Shown here piece by piece: positions 3 through 35,001 of a stretch of 35,122 bases of DNA (its first letter is position 1; each line of letters opens with the position of its first letter). The notes under the pieces were generated by a model, which was not told the DNA's origin, ran no database searches, and saw only the letters and a list, made by a program, of their open reading frames with translations. Source of the DNA: a virus (Duplodnaviria; Caudoviricetes); IMG/VR virus record IMGVR_UViG_3300014656_000081, positions 1 to 35,122 of that record, one strand, 5' to 3'. A program made the translations under genes and the position numbers.

Positions 3-587
3 CCTCATAATAATGATGAGGCGTATAAGATGGCCGTTACCGATGCCCTCTCGACCGCATGTAAAATGCTTGGAGTGGCTTCGGATATTTATATGGGCCT
101 TTGGGATGGTGCCAAGTATATCGAAAAGGAACCAAGAAAACAAAAGCAGGCCAGGGATCAAAGTTCCGAGCAAACGGAACCGCCACCACCCGAATCCAAA
201 CCCCCAAAAACAGAACCTCCCCGAAAACCTGCGGAATGGACTCCGTATGAATCAGAGTTACAGACGCGTTATGGGTCGGACAAGGCTGCCATACTGAAAA
301 AGGAAGCCGAAAAGCTGAATATTGATATCACTGGAAAACTTCCCCGGGAAGTTCACCAAATGATACTCGGCTTCGACGCCAAGGTGAATCCTGAACCAAA
401 CGACTCTGTAGATGATCGGCTTGCTGTCGCGCAGCAAATCTGGATAGCCATAGACAAGGAAAACGCCAATGATCCTGTCGTTGTGGAAATGGCGCGAGTA
501 AACGCCAGACTTGATACGATACATCCTGAAAATCCTGATGAGGCTCAGAATTTATTAAATGAAATCGTGGCATTGAAAGCTAAATGA
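3..587 (+). CDS. Sak/Rad52-family single-strand annealing protein (5'-truncated by window edge)
   Basis: Frame is open from base 3 (PHNNDEAYKMAVTDALSTACKMLGVASDIYMGLWD); matches the Rad52/Sak K-x-A-x-TDAL...LG-x-x-x-D-x-Y pattern, then a Pro-rich linker. Confidence 0.75.
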   Translation, partial: PHNNDEAYKMAVTDALSTACKMLGVASDIYMGLWDGAKYIEKEPRKQKQARDQSSEQTEPPPPESKPPKTEPPRKPAEWTPYESELQTRYGSDKAAILKKEAEKLNIDITGKLPREVHQMILGFDAKVNPEPNDSVDDRLAVAQQIWIAIDKENANDPVVVEMARVNARLDTIHPENPDEAQNLLNEIVALKAK

Positions 588-593
588 TGAGAT

Positions 594-1037
594 ATGAAAC
601 AACCCGTTCCCATATTTGATGGCAAAATAATTCAAGGCAAGAACCGAAAAACGATCCAATACGCTCCAGGAGATGAGGCAGGCATTAAGCGTTGGATTCA
701 GACATTCAAAGTCGGCCAACGCCTTGATATCATCATCCGTCGGCATTCGAGTAAACGCACGAATGAGCAGAACGCTTATTATTGGGGTGTCGTGATCCCT
801 ATCCTTGCAGATTATTTCGGACATGACAACCCGGAAAACATGCACGAGGATCTAAAGTTGAAATTTAACCCGGTTGAAAGCAGGCTCACAAAAGGAAAGA
901 TCATTGGCGGAACGACAATAAAAATGAGTACGGTTGAATTTATGGTCGCAGAGGACAGCTATGTTGAGAGAATCTGTCGTTGGGCAGCCATGGAGTATCA
1001 AATCTACATACCCCCGCCGAAAAAGGACAAGAAATGA
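594..1037 (+). CDS. NinB/Orf-like recombination accessory protein
   Basis: KRTNEQNAYYWG motif typical of NinB/YbcN-like proteins; directly follows the SSAP gene. Confidence 0.6.
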   Translation: MKQPVPIFDGKIIQGKNRKTIQYAPGDEAGIKRWIQTFKVGQRLDIIIRRHSSKRTNEQNAYYWGVVIPILADYFGHDNPENMHEDLKLKFNPVESRLTKGKIIGGTTIKMSTVEFMVAEDSYVERICRWAAMEYQIYIPPPKKDKK

Positions 1038-1420
1038 ATCTACCGGTCAGGTCTAAAACATATCTCAAATGGCTGTTAACGCAACCGGCTTTATGCGACC
1101 ATAAAACAGAGGTCTACGCTCATCAGCCGCTTGACGGCAGTTCCAAGGGCAAGAAACCGAGCGATCTCTATGCCGTGCCTTTATGCGATACGTGCCACAA
1201 AATTGAGCACCAGGAGGGTAGGCTGTCTTTTTGGACAAACGTGTTCCGGTTGCCGGAAACAACGAAAACTTTTGAGTGCAAGGAGAGGGTCAACGGCCTT
1301 TTGGCCCTTGAGTGCATTAAATTGGCGAATAGGTTTCTGGTAGAGGACCTTTTACCAAAGAAAAATCTAACCAGGAAATTCAGCCGACAGAAAAAAGCGG
1401 CTGATTTCAGCGTTAGGTGA
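1034..1420 (+). CDS. DUF968/HNH-like Zn-binding putative nuclease
   Basis: ATG 1034 overlaps the upstream stop (ATGA); RSKTYLKWL..QP and KPSDLYAVPLCDTCH motifs; C-terminus runs through the attC-like site. Confidence 0.6.
   Translation: MNLPVRSKTYLKWLLTQPALCDHKTEVYAHQPLDGSSKGKKPSDLYAVPLCDTCHKIEHQEGRLSFWTNVFRLPETTKTFECKERVNGLLALECIKLANRFLVEDLLPKKNLTRKFSRQKKAADFSVR
1365..1418 (+). mobile_element. attC-like integron recombination site (complete, 54 bp)
   Basis: R'' ATCTAAC - CAGGA - L'' AATTCAGC - CGACAGAAAAAAGCG - L' GCTGATT - TCAGC - R' GTTAGGT; extra base in L'' and bulged A in CGAC/GCG as in classical attC. Confidence 0.8.
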
Positions 1421-1424
1421 TTCA

Positions 1425-1784
1425 ATGGAAAAAGAATACGTTGTTATACGTCCGATACGTGGCATTCAAACACTATGCGTAAAAGCAAAAAGTAAATCTG
1501 AAGCCAAACGACTTGTTGATTCATGGGCAAATTCTGTGGAAGGTATGCAATTGGATATTGAATGGTATGGAAAATCAATCCAAGCAATACCACAGAAAAC
1601 ACCTAAAAAGCCAGTTGAAAATGATTTACGAGGAGCCGGATACTCGCAAGAAGAAATCGATCAAATTATGCGGACATATGATTTTAGCCCAAATCCGGTG
1701 GTTGACCGGGCTAAATGCGCGACGTGTGGAGAGCCACTGATTATGGGAGTATGTGAAACCGGTTGCGGGAAGGTAGCGAAATAA
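1425..1784 (+). CDS. hypothetical protein, apparently chimeric (27 aa shared with virion protein 14227-14919; Cys-rich C-terminus)
   Basis: 119-aa ORF between two attC-like sites; stop TAA lies inside the R'' box AAATAAC. Confidence 0.6.
   Translation: MEKEYVVIRPIRGIQTLCVKAKSKSEAKRLVDSWANSVEGMQLDIEWYGKSIQAIPQKTPKKPVENDLRGAGYSQEEIDQIMRTYDFSPNPVVDRAKCATCGEPLIMGVCETGCGKVAK
1619..1699 (+). repeat. 81-bp dispersed repeat, copy 1 (inverted relative to 14348-14428)
   Basis: 80/81 identity to the reverse complement of 14348-14428; both encode NDLRGAGYSQEEIDQIM(R/G)TYDFSPNPV. Confidence 0.95.
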
Positions 1785-1813
1785 CCGCCCGGCAACTCAC
1801 TTTATCGTTATTG
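1779..1813 (+). mobile_element. internally deleted attC-like remnant
   Basis: R'' AAATAAC (contains stop) ... L'-like ACTCACT - TTATC - R' GTTATTG; L'' missing. Confidence 0.5.
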
Positions 1814-1826
1814 TACAGGGAGAAAC

Positions 1827-1988
1827 ATGAAACAGGATGCTTTATTTTCCGCCTTCCTCGCCGGGTCACTGAGAGCCGAATATTTGACCGAGTTTGATTT
1901 GGACGACGAAGAGATGGCGGAGATCAGACGTGATTTTGATAAATGGCTTAACGATAACCAGCAGTTCAACCCGACTGACGCGGGTTAA
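1827..1988 (+). CDS. small acidic hypothetical protein (53 aa)
   Basis: GGGAG RBS before ATG; MKQDALFSAFLAGSLRAEYLTEFDLDDEEMAEIRRDFDKWLNDNQQFNPTDAG*; ends in an attC-like site. Confidence 0.6.
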   Translation: MKQDALFSAFLAGSLRAEYLTEFDLDDEEMAEIRRDFDKWLNDNQQFNPTDAG

Positions 1989-2001
1989 CTGCGCGATTTA
2001 T
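1952..2001 (+). mobile_element. attC-like site with degenerate R'
   Basis: R'' CGATAAC - CAGCA - L'' GTTCAACC - CGACTGACGCG - L' GGTTAAC - TGCGC - GATTTAT; canonical extra C in L'' and bulged A. Confidence 0.7.
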
Positions 2002-2015
2002 ATGCTCTTTTAAAT

Positions 2016-2207
2016 TATGCGGGGAGCCGGAGTTGCCATCCGGTTTATGGGAGCCTTGGAAAGATCAAATGCCTGGCTGCCACGTGAGGAAGAATGCGGC
2101 AAGCAAGCCCATGTGACGAAGCATTTACGGGGGGGAGCCCCTCGACATCGAGCAATCGGTGTTTGTTAGGTAAAGTGGGGACTGTGAAGATACCCAAACC
2201 CCGCATA
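2016..2207 (+). ncRNA. candidate structured non-coding RNA between attC-like sites
   Basis: Terminal complementarity TATGCGGGG (2016-2024)/CCCCGCATA (2199-2207); internal hairpin CCGGA/TCCGG (2027-2043); no + strand ORF >=60 aa. Confidence 0.35.
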
Positions 2208-2228
2208 TAACAACGGCGTGGAGTAGAC
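2205..2228 (+). mobile_element. attC-like left half-site
   Basis: R'' ATATAAC - AACGG - L'' CGTGGAGT - AGAC; right arm degenerate. Confidence 0.45.
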
Positions 2229-2287
2229 GCTGAGAAAATGCAACTAATTGTATTGATTTAACGGGTTGCGGAATGTTGAAAAATTTT

Positions 2288-2590
2288 ATGGCAGATAAAA
2301 AAGAAAGTTTTCGTGATTTGGTATTAAAAAAAGCTGATGAAGGCAAAGTAGTTTTCATGACCCTTTTAGGCTTGATGGAAGCGGATCTTGAAGAATTTAT
2401 AGAGCAACCGACCGAAGGTTTGCTTTATGACTTGAATCGAGACAGAGTCACAGTTCTGACATTTATAGACGATCCCAAATGGGTTAATGATTTTGCTGTT
2501 GGCTTGGTGATAGCAAAACTTAAAGAAAAAATTGATAACCAATCAATTCAATCGGACTTTAAGCCCAAAAAGCAGATCCCGCCGCTCTAA
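2288..2590 (+). CDS. hypothetical protein
   Basis: MADKKESFRDLVLKK... ORF (alternative start 2273); 3' end runs through an attC half-site into the convergent gene. Confidence 0.65.
   Translation: MADKKESFRDLVLKKADEGKVVFMTLLGLMEADLEEFIEQPTEGLLYDLNRDRVTVLTFIDDPKWVNDFAVGLVIAKLKEKIDNQSIQSDFKPKKQIPPL
2533..2557 (+). mobile_element. attC-like left half-site, truncated at the convergent late gene
   Basis: R'' TGATAAC - CAATC - L'' AATTCAAT - CGGAC, followed almost at once by the stop codon of 2559-2924(-). Confidence 0.5.
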
Positions 2591-2924
2591 CTGCCTGATA
2601 CATGATTTCAGCGGTGATTTCTTTGACGCCGTTCTCAACAAGCATCTGATATAAAATAGAATCCGCGGTGTAGCGATCAATACCAAGCGAATGATCACCG
2701 TATAGGTAATCATGAATCAACGCCGGCACCATCACATCCGGATGGAACGGGGTGTAGGTGACCAGCCAGCCGATAGCCGGAATCGACGCGCCGTTATAAA
2801 TAAACCCCGCCGGTATGGTTATCAATAGAGTCTCACCGTCCACCGTGCATTTATACGAATACTCTTCAATCAGTTCGTATAAATTCTCTTTGGGCCGCGG
2901 TGTCAGTTTCGGTTGTGGTATCAT
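2559..2924 (-). CDS. DUF1353-family protein
   Basis: TIPAGFIYNGASIP and PALIHDYLY motifs; ATG 2924 overlaps the upstream stop. Confidence 0.8.
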   Translation of the reverse strand: MIPQPKLTPRPKENLYELIEEYSYKCTVDGETLLITIPAGFIYNGASIPAIGWLVTYTPFHPDVMVPALIHDYLYGDHSLGIDRYTADSILYQMLVENGVKEITAEIMYQAVRAAGSAFWA

Positions 2925-3262
2925 TTTTTCGTGCGCTCCTTTCCCCGAAATGGTCGCCTCCTTGTATTCCGATGGCATTGCAAATGGATATGTACCGGTT
3001 CCCCGTGATATAAACACACCTCATATTCCCGACGTTCCGGGTCATATTCCCATCTGCTGTTGATCCATTCTTTAATGGCTCTTCCGACAATAGCGGCATG
3101 GCAAGAAATGTCTACCGCTCGCAGGGGAATAGTGTCATGTATCCCGCCGCCACCTCTCCACAATGATGTGCATTTGAACGGGCCGATATTGGATTCCAAA
3201 TCTCTTATTATAAACCGCAGCGTCGGATGGAGAAAACCTATTTGCTCAAGATCCATCTCCAT
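2921..3262 (-). CDS. putative endolysin, M15-like Zn peptidase
   Basis: TSLWR..GIHDTIPLRAVDI...HIHLQ = H-x7-D and H-x-H Zn ligands; at the distal end of the late operon. Confidence 0.65.
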   Translation of the reverse strand: MEMDLEQIGFLHPTLRFIIRDLESNIGPFKCTSLWRGGGGIHDTIPLRAVDISCHAAIVGRAIKEWINSRWEYDPERREYEVCLYHGEPVHIHLQCHRNTRRRPFRGKERTKK

Positions 3263-3453: not shown

Positions 3454-4113
3454 TTAAATCCCGCCGGCCTGTCGTGTTAATCCATAGTGCTTTTTGGCTT
3501 CATCCCATTGATATAACTGAGCATTTTTTTCAGTTACGTGGACATAGACAATAATAAACTCCGGTTCAATCGGCATCCCGGTCTTATCATCAAGATCGAT
3601 GCAGAGCATGTATATGTCCGGGCCGTCGGATACCATTATCAAACCTACTTTGCCGTATTCCGGGAATTCAGCCTCTTCGAACGAGAGGGGATACCAGTCT
3701 AAAAGGTCATAAGGATCCACTGAAGAATCGTAAGTATAGGTAAAAATATCCTCATTCGTAAAGCTGAAAACGCATTGCCCTGAAGCGATTTTCTGGCGGT
3801 CCACTTTTTCGAGTTTGTTGTTTGCTGTCCATCGGGCCTCGTAATCTCCCGGTGGATAATCATGGTTTCCAATGGTTTTTTTACCGCTATCAACTCCCCC
3901 GCATGCGATATTTGTCGGTTCCGTTGTTTGATTTCTAAAAGGATGATCATGCCAATAAATGCAATAACTCAGGTCACGATTCGATTTGTTTACCATTAAA
4001 AATGTTACGGTTTCAGGTTCGGCAGGTAGGTTCAAATCTACCGTAACGCATCCAGAAATAATGACGATGACGAACACTGCGGCCAGCAACACTTTTGTCA
4101 CTGACTTTTTCAT
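3454..4113 (-). CDS. putative lipoprotein
   Basis: MKKSVTKVLLAAVFVIVIISGC signal with lipobox ISGC; AGGAG RBS upstream. Confidence 0.65.
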   Translation of the reverse strand: MKKSVTKVLLAAVFVIVIISGCVTVDLNLPAEPETVTFLMVNKSNRDLSYCIYWHDHPFRNQTTEPTNIACGGVDSGKKTIGNHDYPPGDYEARWTANNKLEKVDRQKIASGQCVFSFTNEDIFTYTYDSSVDPYDLLDWYPLSFEEAEFPEYGKVGLIMVSDGPDIYMLCIDLDDKTGMPIEPEFIIVYVHVTEKNAQLYQWDEAKKHYGLTRQAGGI

Positions 4114-14055: not shown

Positions 14056-14238
14056 ATGAAACGATTCATTATCATTTTATTGATTCTATCTTTTATTTCC
14101 TGCCAAACTGCAAATACACAGCTAAAAAGTGAGGCCCCAATTGAACCGCCGGAGCAAATAAATACAGATGGTATGGCTATGATTACGAATTTTATGATTG
14201 AAATACTAAAAGTTGTTAATATCATATCAATACCATGA
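14056..14238 (+). CDS. small lipoprotein moron (60 aa)
   Basis: MKRFIIILLILSFISC lipobox-like signal; own promoter and RBS; AT-rich. Confidence 0.65.
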   Translation: MKRFIIILLILSFISCQTANTQLKSEAPIEPPEQINTDGMAMITNFMIEILKVVNIISIP

Positions 14239-14919
14239 GAAATAATTAGATAATCCAGGCCCCATCAATTCTTCGGTAAGATCTCTTGACATAATATTAC
14301 TGGGAGTAAACGCTTGTTCATAATCATTGAAATAGTTTTCCAGACTTACCGGATTTGGGCTAAAATCATATGTCCCCATAATTTGATCGATTTCTTCTTG
14401 CGAGTATCCGGCTCCTCGTAAATCATTTGATAGTTCTCTTTCTGCCGCTCTTGTGGTAGAAATTTGCCCTGCTAAGGTTTTCGCCTGATTCTGTCTAAGA
14501 CCATGAGTCAAAAACCCGAGACTCATTAAAGTGCTTGCCGGCTGAGGAGTTAAAAGTCCAATTGGTGTCCCGACAACAGCTCCCCAAACTTTATCCCAGA
14601 AAGATTCTTTTGCTTTCGGAAAAGATAATTCCTTATATTTTTCTTTTAATGCTTTAAGAAGACTGTCTCTTTGAGACGGATTCGCATCTGCGAGTAATCC
14701 GCGCATCAACCCCATGTGATATCCTTTGGTTTCAAGAACATTACTCAAGGGATTTACTCGATATCCTTCTCCCCAATTAGCTGCGGCAAAAGGATTCGCG
14801 CCAGGGTAATCAAACTCATCGATCCCCAGAAAATCGCCATAGCCGGTGTAAGAACCACCATAATCCAATCCCGGACCGACATCCGGTTCGCCCCATCCGA
14901 AATCATCATCATCAATCAT
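14227..14919 (-). CDS. internal virion protein (putative)
   Basis: Coupled to the upstream nozzle gene (TAATG overlap); D/G-rich N-terminus. Confidence 0.55.
   Translation of the reverse strand: MIDDDDFGWGEPDVGPGLDYGGSYTGYGDFLGIDEFDYPGANPFAAANWGEGYRVNPLSNVLETKGYHMGLMRGLLADANPSQRDSLLKALKEKYKELSFPKAKESFWDKVWGAVVGTPIGLLTPQPASTLMSLGFLTHGLRQNQAKTLAGQISTTRAAERELSNDLRGAGYSQEEIDQIMGTYDFSPNPVSLENYFNDYEQAFTPSNIMSRDLTEELMGPGLSNYFSWY
14348..14428 (-). repeat. 81-bp dispersed repeat, copy 2
   Basis: Reverse complement of 1619-1699 with one mismatch. Confidence 0.95.
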
Positions 14920-27194: not shown

Positions 27195-27486
27195 CCTTCT
27201 TAGGCCTCCCCGGACCACGCTTGCCCTCGGAAATACCTCGCTCAAGATCCGCCATAGCCATATTTGCAATTTTGACTTCGGAAAGATCCCTCTCAAGATC
27301 CACCATATTTGCAATTTTGACTTCGGAAATATCCCGCTCAAGATCCGCCACCCTGGTCCGTAATTCGTTGTTCATGTCATGCAGCCGCTCCCGATCCGAC
27401 TTCACAACCTCAAGATCCCTCTCCAACTCGGTTATCCGCTGATCCCTCTGAATCAACTTCTTCGTCCGCTCATCAGGTTTCGACAT
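27187..27486 (-). CDS. coiled-coil protein with tandem 15-aa repeats and AT-hook-like tail
   Basis: DLERD(I/L)SEVKIANM x2 plus partial copies; C-terminal KRGPGRPKK. Confidence 0.65.
   Translation of the reverse strand: MSKPDERTKKLIQRDQRITELERDLEVVKSDRERLHDMNNELRTRVADLERDISEVKIANMVDLERDLSEVKIANMAMADLERGISEGKRGPGRPKKDE
27258..27347. repeat. 2 x 45-bp tandem repeat (plus partial copy at 27227-27254)
   Basis: CCATATTTGCAATTTTGACTTCGGAAA(G/T)ATCCC(T/G)CTCAAGATCC(A/G). Confidence 0.9.
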
Positions 27487-28458: not shown

Positions 28459-28941
28459 TCACCGTTCCATTCCGGCACCACCACATGTGGTATCCTCTGG
28501 CACGACATCCTGACCATCTCCCAGCTGCCGCTCATACTCGGCTGTCGATCCCTGCCCGGCATGCACAATGATGTGAGCTGTGTTACTCGTTGATTTTCCT
28601 CGGATTAATCGCTCGTTTCGAGTTAAAATGTCCACCATTATAGCCTGTTGATATGGGCTTGTCTCCTTTAAGCTGGCCCGGTTTAGGCTCTGAACTACCT
28701 TCAGTTTGCTGGCGCTGAGTATGTCTGCCTCGTGTTTCTGGTAAGCTCGCAAGTCGGCTCCCTCAGGGATGAGAGGTTTTAGTCTTTGGCAGACAGCGCC
28801 TTTTGTTATGCCGAAATGATCTGCTATTTCTTGATAGGTAAGGCCGCCGATACGCATTTTTAGAGCTTGTTCGAGATTTAATATGCCTGTGGGGACCGCT
28901 GGAATATCGATAGTAATCTGTTTGGTTAGTTTAGCAGGCAT
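28459..28941 (-). CDS. terminase small subunit (putative, HTH)
   Basis: ALKMRIGGLTYQEIADHFGITKGAVCQRL HTH; ERLIRGKSTSN C-terminal motif; upstream of terL. Confidence 0.65.
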   Translation of the reverse strand: MPAKLTKQITIDIPAVPTGILNLEQALKMRIGGLTYQEIADHFGITKGAVCQRLKPLIPEGADLRAYQKHEADILSASKLKVVQSLNRASLKETSPYQQAIMVDILTRNERLIRGKSTSNTAHIIVHAGQGSTAEYERQLGDGQDVVPEDTTCGGAGMER

Positions 28942-29687
28942 TATTTTTCCCTGCTCTCCCGTACAAACAGGTGATTCATCCGATTGATATCTTTGAGTTT
29001 CATCCCGCTTTTGTCGAATATGTCAAGCATCGCTCCGTAGTTCGAGTTTCCATGTTGAATCTCGATCATAACCGATTTGATGCGCTCGTCGAGCAGGATC
29101 GGTTCAAGTCCGGACAGAACCCGGAATTCCGCACCGTCCACGTCTATTTTAATATGGTTGGGGATTGGCATTTTGAGTTCTCCAACCATCTCTGCTGCGG
29201 TATAGGCGATGACAGCCTGCCCGTCCTGGCACAGCGTCAGTCGATGATCAGCAGTGCCGGGGGAAATCGCGCTTGTCCGGAGAGTGAGCAGACCGGGAAA
29301 ATCGGAAACAGCGAGACAATACGCGCGGATCATTTGCTCATAGCCATTAATTATTATGTTACGCGTGAGCACATCATAATTACCGGCATGCGGCTCGAAT
29401 GCGATCACCTGGCAGCCGCGCCGGGCGGCGTAGAGGCTATAGCAGCCAATGTTGGCACCGATATCCCACAGGATCTCATTGACCTGCATCGAATCAATCC
29501 ATGCAATCGTATCGGGTTCTTTTGTCAGCAGTGTCCGGGCCCGGTAGCTGCAATGGGAATTAGGACACCAGAACGCAATGCCGGCGGTGGTGATTTCGGG
29601 AACGAACGATTGCCAATTCCTGGCGAATGCGGATTTGTCAATGATTTTAAGGGCATAGCGGAATATGCGGATGATGAGATGTGTCAT
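28941..29687 (-). CDS. FkbM-family SAM-dependent methyltransferase
   Basis: WDIGANIGCYS, AFEP, HIKIDVDGAE motifs; ATG 29687 overlaps the upstream stop. Confidence 0.9.
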   Translation of the reverse strand: MTHLIIRIFRYALKIIDKSAFARNWQSFVPEITTAGIAFWCPNSHCSYRARTLLTKEPDTIAWIDSMQVNEILWDIGANIGCYSLYAARRGCQVIAFEPHAGNYDVLTRNIIINGYEQMIRAYCLAVSDFPGLLTLRTSAISPGTADHRLTLCQDGQAVIAYTAAEMVGELKMPIPNHIKIDVDGAEFRVLSGLEPILLDERIKSVMIEIQHGNSNYGAMLDIFDKSGMKLKDINRMNHLFVRESREK

Positions 29688-29869
29688 AATACCCAGTGCT
29701 CCGACCGGTGCTCCGCCTCGAAATCGTCTCGCGGGGTAGGATACACGGTTTTTTCCAAACGCTTGCTCTCCCTGTGAATTCCGGCGAGGTGAACAGCGAT
29801 ACGAAACGTGTATGAAATAATAGCAATTCCGATGAGGTAATAGAATATCTCCAGTATTATCATGGTCAT
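29684..29869 (-). CDS. small membrane protein
   Basis: AAGGAG RBS preceded by a GC hairpin; one N-terminal TM helix. Confidence 0.55.
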   Translation of the reverse strand: MTMIILEIFYYLIGIAIISYTFRIAVHLAGIHRESKRLEKTVYPTPRDDFEAEHRSEHWVL

Positions 29870-29944
29870 CTGACTCCTTCGGGAATGCCCCCGGCACCCC
29901 TGCCGGGGGCGTGGATAAAAGGAGGTTAATGAATGGGTGAATAT

Positions 29945-31815: not shown

Positions 31816-31863
31816 AATTTCACATCCCCGGCCAACGGGGAACGCTGAGGCGAGAAACCTACC

Positions 31864-31932
31864 CCCGATCCGGCGGGAACCACCGCCATGCCCGGAATTG
31901 CTGGCGGTAAAAAAGGAGAGAAGAAATGAAAA
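31864..31932 (+). repeat. 69-bp intergenic direct repeat, copy 1 (hairpin + RBS + ATGAAAA)
   Basis: Identical to 33309-33377; ACCGCCA/TGGCGGT stem. Confidence 0.95.
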
Positions 31933-32165
31933 TCAAATGCCCGAAATGTAAGTTTGTCGTAAACAGAGGCCCGGTTGCCTTGCGAGAGGCAATCATAATA
32001 AAGCACCTCTGCCTCCGCCATGCGGCGATCGCCGATTCTTACGTCGGCGAAACGGTCGTTGGCGAGCGGAGTGTCTTTTCCTCTGCCACTTTGGAGGGGA
32101 AAAGATATGCGCATCAAGCGCTCACTATTTACGAGTACGCGGAAGTGAGTGCGGCGATAGTATAG
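31926..32165 (+). CDS. hypothetical protein
   Basis: Start supplied by the 69-bp repeat; CPKC. Confidence 0.6.
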   Translation: MKIKCPKCKFVVNRGPVALREAIIIKHLCLRHAAIADSYVGETVVGERSVFSSATLEGKRYAHQALTIYEYAEVSAAIV

Positions 32166-32296
32166 CCCGGCGGAACCGGGCGAGGAGGGGAAATGTATTA
32201 TAAAAGAATATGGCATTCTCTCGCAAAGAGGATTTGTAATTAAATAATCCAACCCGCCTCCGTCTCCACGAGGGGGCAACCAACCCGAGCCCGGCG
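32166..32296 (+). pseudogene. internally deleted duplicate of the 33960-34311 gene unit
   Basis: 32166-32225 = 33960-34019 and 32225-32296 = 34240-34311; 221 bp missing; residual 16-aa ORF 32193-32243. Confidence 0.9.
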
Positions 32297-32318
32297 ACAC
32301 CGGACAAGGAGGATTGAG

Positions 32319-32552
32319 ATGAGAAAAGAACATTTTGAGGCAATCCGCCGAGATTGCCCGTGGATGATCGACCATGCGGATTATGCCGCCGCCTGTACTC
32401 TGGCCATCCGTACCAGCGACACGAAATGGCTGGAGAAATTGTCCTGTTGGGGACGAGAAATGTCCCCGTTGGTAGAACCCGAACCTGACCGGCATCCGCC
32501 GGTTGACATTCCAACGCTTGAAGAATTGAGGCGTTGGATAAAGAGGGAATAA
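32319..32552 (+). CDS. hypothetical protein
   Basis: Hairpin+AGGAGG RBS. Confidence 0.6.
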   Translation: MRKEHFEAIRRDCPWMIDHADYAAACTLAIRTSDTKWLEKLSCWGREMSPLVEPEPDRHPPVDIPTLEELRRWIKRE

Positions 32553-32556
32553 TGAA

Positions 32557-32814
32557 ATGAACATAAATAAATCAATAGCAATATCCGATAGGGGGATTGT
32601 GAGGATCACGCATCTGCCGTATACGACGCACTATAGTTGCGCAGTATGTGGGTGGATGCCCTCGCACTGGCTGCCGAAGCTGCACGGGTGGGGGAAGGCC
32701 CAGAAGCTCCGGGCCTTGGTGCGGGAACATTATCGGATAAAACACACCACACCCGAGCCCGGCGGAACCGGGCGAGGAGGGGAAAATCATGGAAAATTAT
32801 TCGCACGCATTTGA
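32557..32814 (+). CDS. hypothetical protein
   Basis: ORF with CAVC; C-terminus reads through the hairpin-RBS repeat. Confidence 0.5.
   Translation: MNINKSIAISDRGIVRITHLPYTTHYSCAVCGWMPSHWLPKLHGWGKAQKLRALVREHYRIKHTTPEPGGTGRGGENHGKLFARI
32758..32785 (+). repeat. 28-bp hairpin-RBS module (also at 32166-32193 and 33960-33987)
   Basis: CCCGGCGGAACCGGGCGAGGAGGGGAAA, three identical copies. Confidence 0.95.
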
Positions 32815-33301
32815 GGAGTTTGAGGGAAAAATGAAGGAGAAAAGAATATGCCCGGAATGCGGGCAAATCTGGGAGCACGGTTCGGATGCCGCGCGAGATT
32901 TTCGGCTTGCACGGCATCTAATTGACGTACACGGCTACACTGCCGACTGCCAAGTCGACGAAGCAGTAGCCGTGGGGGGAAAATGCACATTTGTGACTGC
33001 CATTTCCCCCACCAGGAAACGCTTTACCTACTCCTACTCAACGGGAAGAAGGGAGGTAAAAAAAATGAAGAAATTCAAACTGCAAAAAGTGGTCGTACAT
33101 TTCGGCGGCTCCCCGCGATTTGATATCGCTGGGGACCCCCAAATCGTCCGGGCAGCGAATCCCGCAAACGCTGCCCGAAATGCTCTAGGGACTCGGGGCA
33201 CAGTCGAGTCGCTGGAACGGGACGCGTACGGACCAATCTGGGTCCGTGGTACGGGCTCGATCGACGATTCATGTCCGGGTGTGATGATCACACCCGCATA
33301 A
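32789..33301 (+). CDS. hypothetical protein (possible fusion; in-frame internal RBS+ATG at 33065)
   Basis: CPEC..H...H N-terminal half; GGAGG-N-ATG MKKFKLQK second half. Confidence 0.55.
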   Translation: MENYSHAFEEFEGKMKEKRICPECGQIWEHGSDAARDFRLARHLIDVHGYTADCQVDEAVAVGGKCTFVTAISPTRKRFTYSYSTGRREVKKMKKFKLQKVVVHFGGSPRFDIAGDPQIVRAANPANAARNALGTRGTVESLERDAYGPIWVRGTGSIDDSCPGVMITPA

Positions 33302-33308
33302 TTCTAAT

Positions 33309-33377
33309 CCCGATCCGGCGGGAACCACCGCCATGCCCGGAATTGCTGGCGGTAAAAAAGGAGAGAAGAAATGAAAA
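33309..33377 (+). repeat. 69-bp intergenic direct repeat, copy 2
   Basis: Identical to 31864-31932. Confidence 0.95.
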
Positions 33378-33568
33378 CCAAGGTTTTGGCCCAGCAGTAT
33401 GCCGATGCTTTCAGCGACGTGTCTCTAATCCGCGTCGCGAAAAATGGGAGAACGGCCACATTCCGGGAAGCGTCCCCGACTGGCGGCCGGGAATTCACGC
33501 TCACCCGGAAATATCTGGAAACATGCTATATCATTGAAACCCCGCACGGGGTTGTGGAGGTGCAATAA
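33371..33568 (+). CDS. hypothetical protein
   Basis: Start supplied by the 69-bp repeat. Confidence 0.6.
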   Translation: MKTKVLAQQYADAFSDVSLIRVAKNGRTATFREASPTGGREFTLTRKYLETCYIIETPHGVVEVQ

Positions 33569-33958
33569 ATGTTTGTAAATATATCAAATCATCCATCCGT
33601 GAAATGGTCCCCGGCGCAAATCGCGGCAGCCGGGGAACCGATCATCGATGTCCAGTTTCCGGCCGTATCTCCGGAGCTGGACGAAAACAAATTGTTGGAT
33701 TTCGTCTGCAATTGGGCGGACGAAGTCCTTTACCCCATTCTCCCTCCGCGCGATTTCGGAGGGGATTGTAAACTTGTAAGGCCGGTTACCGCCCACCTGA
33801 TGGGCGAGACCGGCTTTTGCGCTCTCTTGGCAGAAAAGCTCCGCAACATGGGAGCTGTCATTGTCCACTCCACGACGGCCCGTGAAGTTGTGGAGCATCC
33901 GGACGGGTCCAAAACCGCGCAATTCCGGTTCGTGCGGTTTCGGCGAACCGGATTTTGA
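33569..33958 (+). CDS. Csx20-like CRISPR-associated protein (putative cOA ring nuclease)
   Basis: NISNHPS..WS..Q, DVQFP.V.P, HLMGE, STTAREVVE..DGSKT..FRFVRFR motifs; GGAGG RBS. Confidence 0.7.
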   Translation: MFVNISNHPSVKWSPAQIAAAGEPIIDVQFPAVSPELDENKLLDFVCNWADEVLYPILPPRDFGGDCKLVRPVTAHLMGETGFCALLAEKLRNMGAVIVHSTTAREVVEHPDGSKTAQFRFVRFRRTGF

Positions 33959-33986
33959 CCCCGGCGGAACCGGGCGAGGAGGGGAA

Positions 33987-34262
33987 ATGTATTATAAAAG
34001 AATATGGCATTCTCTCGCAGAGGATACCGGAGGATCCGGTCCCACCGGGGACTGGGTCAACTGGGATGTTTCTGTCGATGGAAGTTGGTACGGAAAGACC
34101 GATTTCGGGGTATCCGTAGTCGGTCTTGTGGAACCCGTTGATGCTCCCGATCATATCCAGCATTCCTGCCAAGCGCTTGTCTCTATTGAGACGTTGCCGG
34201 AATGGGAACAGTATTATATTCGTCAGAGATCGAGGTTGAAAAGAGGATTTGTAATTAAATAA
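33987..34262 (+). CDS. hypothetical protein
   Basis: Starts at the hairpin-RBS module (MYYKRIWHSLAEDTGG...). Confidence 0.6.
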   Translation: MYYKRIWHSLAEDTGGSGPTGDWVNWDVSVDGSWYGKTDFGVSVVGLVEPVDAPDHIQHSCQALVSIETLPEWEQYYIRQRSRLKRGFVIK

Positions 34263-34331
34263 TCCAACCCGCCTCCGTCTCCACGAGGGGGCAACCAACC
34301 CGAGCCCGGCGGATTCCGGGCAGGAGGGAAA

Positions 34332-34526
34332 ATGTCAGAAATAGCAACTTTTCACGAGATCTGCAGGCTCGCCGGGCTTCCATGCTGGCGATCATTCATC
34401 CCACGCTGCAAACGCTGCGGGGAGATCATGATCCATAAAACCGGGGAGCCCCTCTCGATTGAGGCTTGGGAAGGATGCCTGGGGATCTGCAACCAGTGCC
34501 TTGTGCAGGCACGGCTGGCGGAATGA
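34332..34526 (+). CDS. small Zn-finger-like protein
   Basis: Variant hairpin-RBS; CKRC...CNQC. Confidence 0.6.
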   Translation: MSEIATFHEICRLAGLPCWRSFIPRCKRCGEIMIHKTGEPLSIEAWEGCLGICNQCLVQARLAE

Positions 34527-34943: not shown

Positions 34944-35001
34944 AACTAACGCCGAATTAAGCGGCCCGCTTTTCAGGGTCCGCTTGAATGAGTGGTTAGC
35001 A
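34944..35001 (-). mobile_element. attC-like integron recombination site (complete, 58 bp)
   Basis: Minus strand: R'' TGCTAAC - CACTC - L'' ATTCAAGC - GGACCCTGAAAAGCGGGCC - L' GCTTAAT - TCGGC - R' GTTAGTT; both extrahelical bases canonical. Confidence 0.88.

Follow-up and report, generated by a model that had tools for sequence, protein, structure and literature searches.

A probable decaying array of integron-type cassettes terminating a phage early operon, with one attC site split by a late-gene copy

The distal end of an early operon in a tailed phage is probably occupied by a decaying integron-type cassette array, in which one complete and four damaged attC sites are found and whose cassettes were likely inserted serially by a host IntI. 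The window, a stretch of 35,122 nucleotides, is a whole linear virus record with an estimated completeness of 52%, and groundwater metagenome runs from several studies contain DNA that is near-identical to it. On the plus strand, the early operon ends with a recombination gene, NinB and a DUF968/HNH-like gene, which are followed by the attC region, and the late operon with its tail, capsid, portal and terminase genes is convergent with the array (Table 1). The product of the truncated first gene presumably resembles the Rad52/Sak annealing proteins. The best homologue of the DUF968/HNH-like gene covers residues 10–97 only. Shortly past an A-run (1355–1370), the frame of this gene misses the TAA of R'' by one base, resulting in read-through of site 1, and its homologues stop earlier than the window copy.

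Table 1. Positions of the array, its cassettes and the associated genes in the window.
Feature	Position	Strand	Basis or remark
Recombination-module gene, 5'-truncated	3..587	+	PHROG label 'exonuclease'
NinB/Orf recombination mediator; anchor for finding relatives	594..1037	+	phrog_72, E 1e-9
DUF968/HNH-like gene; last ~18 codons pass through attC site 1	1034..1420	+	
Site 1, complete 54-bp attC, crossover G1412|TT	1365..1418	+	geometry, fold, model R1
Cassette A	1413..1807	+	R' GTTAGGT vs R'' ACCTAAA at 1601-1607
ORF A, three-part chimera	1425..1784	+	protein search
Long attC belonging to cassette A; 131 bp once the insertion is removed	1601..1813	+	excision test
82-nt insertion within L'' box: 81 nt from late gene 14227-14919 plus one G	1619..1700	+	
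Cassette B	1808..1995	+	
ORF B, 53 aa, runs into site 3	1827-1988	+	
Site 3, attC whose G|TT crossover contains an inserted 'AT'; stem intact	1952..2003	+	
Cassette C	1996..2211	+	
Site 4, left arm and AT-rich loop; right arm and cassette D start gone	2205..2285	+	
ORF D, 100 aa; alternative start 2273; widespread phage gene family	2288..2590	+	
Site 5, left arm only, cut where convergent late gene stops	2533..2558	+	
DUF1353 gene; last of convergent late operon; array boundary	2559..3017	-	
Late gene, 230 aa, source of 81-nt copy	gene 14227-14919; copied part 14348..14428	-	
Second complete attC, in other early operon	34944..35001	-	7/7 pairing, R1 48.5 bits

A strict geometry scan of both strands returned two sites with fully paired L boxes (7/7), namely site 1 and a site near the far end of the window on the minus strand, while 200 first-order shuffles of the window gave a mean of 0.01 such sites. 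Site 1 is made up of R'' ATCTAAC, a 5-nt spacer, an L'' of 8 and an L' of 7 nt paired at 7/7 positions, and R' GTTAGGT. Its bottom strand folds with a z of -3.99, and it scores 40.9 bits (E 2.8e-6) on R1, a covariance model of our own (not that of IntegronFinder) built from 16 bacterial integron attCs (13 chromosomal, three class 1) with one poorly aligned row. These results confirm the complete attC that the preliminary description had placed here. The site is short, and its first unpaired base on the top strand is a T, at a position where most training sites carry C or G. The extrahelical bases are found on the plus-strand left arm, indicating that the array genes have the usual orientation. 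A reversed orientation was rejected, as the best overlapping minus-strand match reaches 10.2 bits. Other contigs of four runs match the window here over site 1 only; scans with patterns of sites 1 and 2 gave matches in the window itself alone, and the R' start (TTAGA) of the cassette that owns site 1 was not found upstream of it.

The minus-strand site, absent from the preliminary description, has the best R1 score in the window and resembles the class 1 integron attC of aac(6')-IIa, with an 80% match across 56 nt. The gene upstream of it ends at the TAA of R'', and a ribosome-binding site and ATG come after R'; no matching R'' of a next cassette was found before 34480. The R'' and R' end boxes are complete in these two sites, and 7/7 pairing of L'' with L' is also found in site 3 and in the long site after excision (described below), but not in sites 4 and 5. 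The attC reading that had been left to a covariance model is thus borne out for the two complete sites, is not significant for site 3 (E 0.27), and finds no match at sites 2, 4 and 5.

The cassette rule, by which the R' that starts a cassette matches the R'' that ends it, had been described as roughly holding for two junctions of the window, and this observation can be both retained and extended. The match covers 4/4 variable positions in cassette A, which is newly added using ACCTAAA at 1601, 3/4 in cassette B, and 4/4 in cassette C once an inserted AT is skipped; the R' of cassette D is no longer present. In a pool of 27 sites, the fractions that match as well are 0.04, 0.11 and 0.04 for A, B and C, respectively. 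Among 27 adjacent pairs from nine phage arrays, R' matches the R'' that follows it at 89 of 108 positions, with 14 perfect junctions among the 27, compared with means of 49.8 positions and 1.4 perfect junctions (maxima 69 and 7) in 20,000 permutations. Both the damaged attCs of the window and the cassette-rule junctions in relatives, which are far above chance, support the earlier view that these are integron-type sites of which the older ones are decaying.

Site 2 (1779–1813), which had been taken for an internally deleted site, is instead the right arm of a long attC belonging to cassette A, with L' at about 1795–1801 and R' at 1807–1813. By itself it forms no hairpin (fold z +0.81), and its AAATAAC is loop sequence of the long attC rather than R''. 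The long site is split by an insertion, 1619–1699 of which is an 81-nt copy of 14348–14428 that differs at a single position (1671). This copy is recent, and was inserted in coding sense and in frame. When 360 trial excisions were compared, removal of 1619–1700 gave the best attC geometry (L boxes 7/7, stem 8/9), and this block coincides exactly with the duplicate found independently. In R'' ACCTAAA the invariant C is replaced by A (AAC to AAA), and the overall fold of the repaired site is no better than that of shuffles (z -0.88). In four runs, other contigs give an ungapped match to 1780–1810 and part from the window to either side of it, the right-hand break falling at or immediately after GTTA (1810/1811). 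The family of long sites was not found in the 301 class genomes and 401 phylum genomes scanned. Two other accounts were considered and set aside. A conserved 35-bp mini-site or an attI-like site does not fit, as 1701–1711 pairs with 1787–1796 and the long attC is restored. An assembly error as the source of the duplication is disfavored, though not fully excluded: the right junction (1700 side) is bridged in an independent run, and the less secure left junction is bridged by 30 letters only, in a run that is possibly the source.

Site 3 had been described as complete except for R'. Its stem is indeed intact (L boxes 7/7, fold z -2.59), and the R' end is present as well, with an AT inserted at the G|TT cut; the R1 match of 16.3 bits is aligned with this 2-nt insert, and other contigs depart from the window at position 1995, where their sequence runs on as G|TTATTG. 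ORF B has no Pfam or PHROG match and no tblastn match in the fetched loci. Cassette C contains no convincing ORF and has no Rfam match at E<=1; Rfam likewise gave no match in the window or in six phage loci. This cassette is closed by a 9-bp terminal helix (2016–2024 with 2199–2207), and its fold (z -2.62; 4/200 shuffles as good) makes it a possible structured RNA, as predicted by folding. The segment 2092–2195 has a match of about 88% in other contigs. A non-coding cassette with a terminal helix like that of cassette C, but without a sequence match to it, lies at about 3725–3935 of locus L019.

The assignment of sites 4 and 5 as left halves stands for site 4 and is weaker for site 5. With a left-arm matrix built from 20 host attCs, the left arm of site 4 scores 19.6 bits and ranks second among all window positions on both strands; the best L' match within 200 nt of it is 4/7. 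Site 5 scores 10.7 bits and ranks seventh, below two presumably chance matches, and is supported by the register of its TAAC with the R'' of the complete attC that ends the homologous gene in locus L005. The AT-rich loop of site 4 (2205–2290) is open, is in frame with ORF D (ENATNCIDLTGCGMLKNF...) and contains two cysteines. Homologues of ORF D occur in 13 viral loci, of which 12 have no flanking attC. In L005, the homologue (76% identical) is an intact cassette with GTTAGTG and CGCTAAC borders, and it has different neighbours in a similar kind of location. An Atlas search with ORF D gave no usable match.

It is very improbable that the five elements are chance hairpins or terminators merely resembling attC. 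The three sites without a model match, the lack of significance of site 3 and the rank of site 5 are what such a reading can draw on, and it is opposed by the shuffle test, the model score, the cassette rule and the long site, which was reconstructed independently; for site 1 it is largely refuted. All five attC-like elements of the preliminary description exist in some form, of which site 1 alone is complete, site 3 is borderline and site 2 had been misread.

Related arrays, which are forward-oriented, are present in other phages. Among 80 viral loci with a NinB relative, model matches were found in four, and two of these four are among the six loci with NinB of at least 52%. The complete phage G006 has four attCs in the matching early operon, located upstream of the recombination genes with none after NinB, and shares with the window the NinB gene and weak matches to two late genes only. 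Its array adjoins the recombination module (locus L022), and in L022 3333–4720 the intact four-site array ends in a left-half site whose R'' still fits its R'. G697, another complete phage, has four attC matches, as in G006. In L019, the array comes after a presumably RecT-like gene. The two divergent early operons of G696 both contain arrays; this phage has no fewer than 15 attC model matches in three arrays (L237 877–1966 and 6997–7960; L239 4959–6105) and some short cassettes that lack an ORF, and is a better subject than the window. The layout is reversed in L020, and no relative was found with both flanking genes of the window array.

The long attC of cassette A has a loop that reads CxxC...CxxxC. 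The 82-nt insertion produces a +1 frame shift through which ORF A enters the frame of this four-cysteine loop, an event with a 1-in-3 chance. The product of ORF A consists of residues 2–55, which fall in a family of 50–82 aa proteins, a middle part that is the late-gene copy, and residues 92–118, which are the attC loop. A search against 1.84 billion proteins gave 18 matches, 15 of which are N-terminal, one is the phage's own late gene, and two cover the C-terminal stretch. Two unrelated proteins, P0134 (...HSRVDRANC...) and P0138 (...AEKPPGSSL), read through intact sites of the long-attC family, of which they encode the left arm, loop and right arm; their in-frame reading follows from how they were found. 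Word-index searches with ORF A and the DUF968 gene returned self-matches only, a separate search gave two marginal loci, and neither the array nor the loop peptide had a match among GenBank phages. The loop tail of ORF A is predicted to be a zinc ribbon, that is, a small zinc-binding tail, and the Pfam zinc-ribbon matches all fall below the cut-off (E 0.033 in the window, 0.0019 in L019 and 0.013 in L239).

When the loop pattern was back-translated, it found one further viral locus, L219 in G696, in which the same loop is carried on different arms behind an unrelated gene. The neighbours at L219 are two long attCs with other Cys ribbons. Nine of the 41 model matches in phage loci are at least 95 nt long, and four of the nine have a four-Cys motif, all in G696 and one being the pattern's own match. 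The upstream ORF runs through the motif at all four (three according to the script, with a near-tie on strand). A fifth four-Cys loop, seen by eye in L019, is not among the model matches, and the motif background is 24/3354 phage windows. Among long host sites, the motif is found in 0/9 model matches and 0/17 strict-scan sites (overlapping sets); the strict scanner, which misses short-stem sites, those of the window included, was used for long loops only. Cys-ribbon loops are present in three phage records, one of them found via the motif, and in two further proteins. The orientation script is crude and assigned 28 of the 41 matches as sense, nine as antisense and four as unclear, with several near-ties. 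Host genes that read more than 12 codons into a site number 0/48 by the sense-frame script and 11/30 by a cruder open-frame count. In a literature search that covered few subscription papers and, for Qi et al., the article apart from its supplements, no paper on translated Cys-ribbon attC loops was found; a search on empty cassettes also found none. It is possible, if rather doubtful, that phages keep a cassette pool of their own in which long attC loops are four-Cys protein modules that are joined in frame to small genes of unrelated kinds and pass from arm to arm by homology, and that the late-gene insertion was selected for locking cassette A and framing the ribbon.

IntI acts at G|TT on the folded bottom strand of attC and reads the asymmetry of its unpaired bases. 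In the proposed course of events, a chromosomally encoded IntI would have integrated circular cassettes from a phage-type pool in trans, using either a GWT site or the G|TT of a preceding attC. As the attC top strand carries the genes, and they are located at the distal operon end, the early transcript would express them. The cassettes would then have been fixed through attC damage, cassette A by the C-to-A change in R'' and the 82-nt insertion, cassette B by the 2 nt added at its cut, and C and D by loss of the right arms; the best reading is that they are now mostly immobilized. The late-gene patch and the loop common to different arms and genes are not explicable by an IntI crossover at G|TT, and are likely to have arisen by short-homology recombination, perhaps via the adjacent phage module. 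These same features, along with the location of the array beside a recombination module as in L019 and L022, are suggestive of shuffling mainly by a phage annealing recombinase or an unknown phage enzyme via short homology, without IntI. This alternative is considered improbable, as homologous exchange would lose the complementarity of R' and R'' in each cassette and would not keep the asymmetry that IntI reads.

A one-time capture of a piece of a host chromosomal integron through illegitimate or homologous recombination, followed by decay with no later cassette traffic, would be consistent with damage at every array site but one and with the good alignment of site 1 to the chromosomal attC L201, and such routes have been proposed in the main text of Qi et al. 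(PMC9892861). This explanation is nonetheless unlikely. The genes are of phage type, as illustrated by the viral homologues of ORF D; arrays occur in early operons of several unrelated phages, and in G696 in each of the two divergent ones; a second attC is found in the other early operon of the window; and long host sites lack four-Cys loops (0/9 and 0/17). Serial insertion by a host IntI remains the preferred reading.

In agreement with the preliminary description, the window contains no integrase: a search for IntI (TIGR02249) found none in this record (0/1; contig 52% complete), and none was found in the complete phages G006 and G697. G696 has a weak tyrosine recombinase match only, which is non-IntI. 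A completeness of 52% leaves room for a phage-encoded recombinase in the missing part of the genome. No attI site or Pc promoter was recognized by eye in the window, and no excision joint at the array was seen in the assembled contigs of four runs, in which rare variants are dropped. A contig joint from 2550 to 1395 in run X5 could represent a circle or the attC of another organism. The best NinB match among named genomes (65%) is on a 3.7-kb contig of a Desulfobacterales MAG, and NinB is also 56% identical to that of a WOR-3 MAG. In the class of that Desulfobacterales MAG, 84 of the 151 genomes have an IntI over the cut-off; none over the cut-off was found in the MAG itself. A host of this class, and with it a host IntI, is hinted at by the weak NinB link. 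Between 1365 and 2558 there are one significant and one borderline site, so that the array has the two clustered attCs of a CALIN if remnants are counted; at least two clustered attCs are clearly present in L005, L019, L022 and G696. The window array is CALIN-like, now marginally so in its number of sites, and is not an integron, as there is no intI on the contig.

The preliminary description regarded attC arrays as foreign to phages, which is contradicted by the main text of Qi et al. (2023, PMC9892861), where 17 phage CALINs are reported and IntI1 recombines 5/6 tested phage attCs. The window resembles these phage CALINs in having co-oriented attCs between small genes and no integrase, and it resembles TJE1 and PH101 of the same study in the usual orientation of the genes. 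It differs in that its cluster has one intact site and that another site is interrupted by sequence copied from a late gene of this phage, with the loop in frame with a gene. Translated attC loops are not described in the parts of that main text covered here, and the supplements could list them. Integrase-less attC clusters in phages are thus already published, and the Cys-ribbon attC loops are an addition. In the available portion of a preprint by Loot et al. (bioRxiv 2022.09.11.507474), IntI1 inserts cassettes at GWT genome sites, and domestication through attC loss is proposed. The resulting SALINs/attG are alike in placing cassettes outside an integron at a GWT target, and site 3 of the window reads G|AT; unlike the window, which has serial cassettes in a phage operon, SALINs are shown in bacterial genomes. 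The chromosomal attCs of the probable host class (L159–L208, L244–L263) share the box geometry, L201 being the one that site 1 resembles, but have long loops without the four-Cys motif. The use of attC as a protein linker, presented as an engineering proposal in the part of Bikard et al. (2010, PMC2926619) considered, is similar in that attC doubles as protein code, and the window is a natural case; in contrast to the linker idea, an IntI crossover at G|TT here would transfer a gene along with its loop and would not exchange the two.

Taken alone, the array is one more phage CALIN in a decayed state. Importance also lies in the several steps of cassette domestication that are found side by side, including an attC disabled by a fresh late-gene copy. 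If the proposal of translated loops is true, recombination sites would double as protein modules, and such loops, if real, would bear on the origin of cassettes and attC loops and provide natural examples of attC as a linker.

Other features of the window were also observed. The plus-strand operon at 31859–34332 contains repeated intergenic modules of 35–78 nt, in up to five copies, ahead of small genes; these modules end in GGAGG-type ribosome sites and could promote gene shuffling by homology. An FkbM-type methyltransferase gene (28941–29897, minus strand) lies upstream of the late operon, and three 45-nt direct repeats (27207–27347) are located close to the terminase region.
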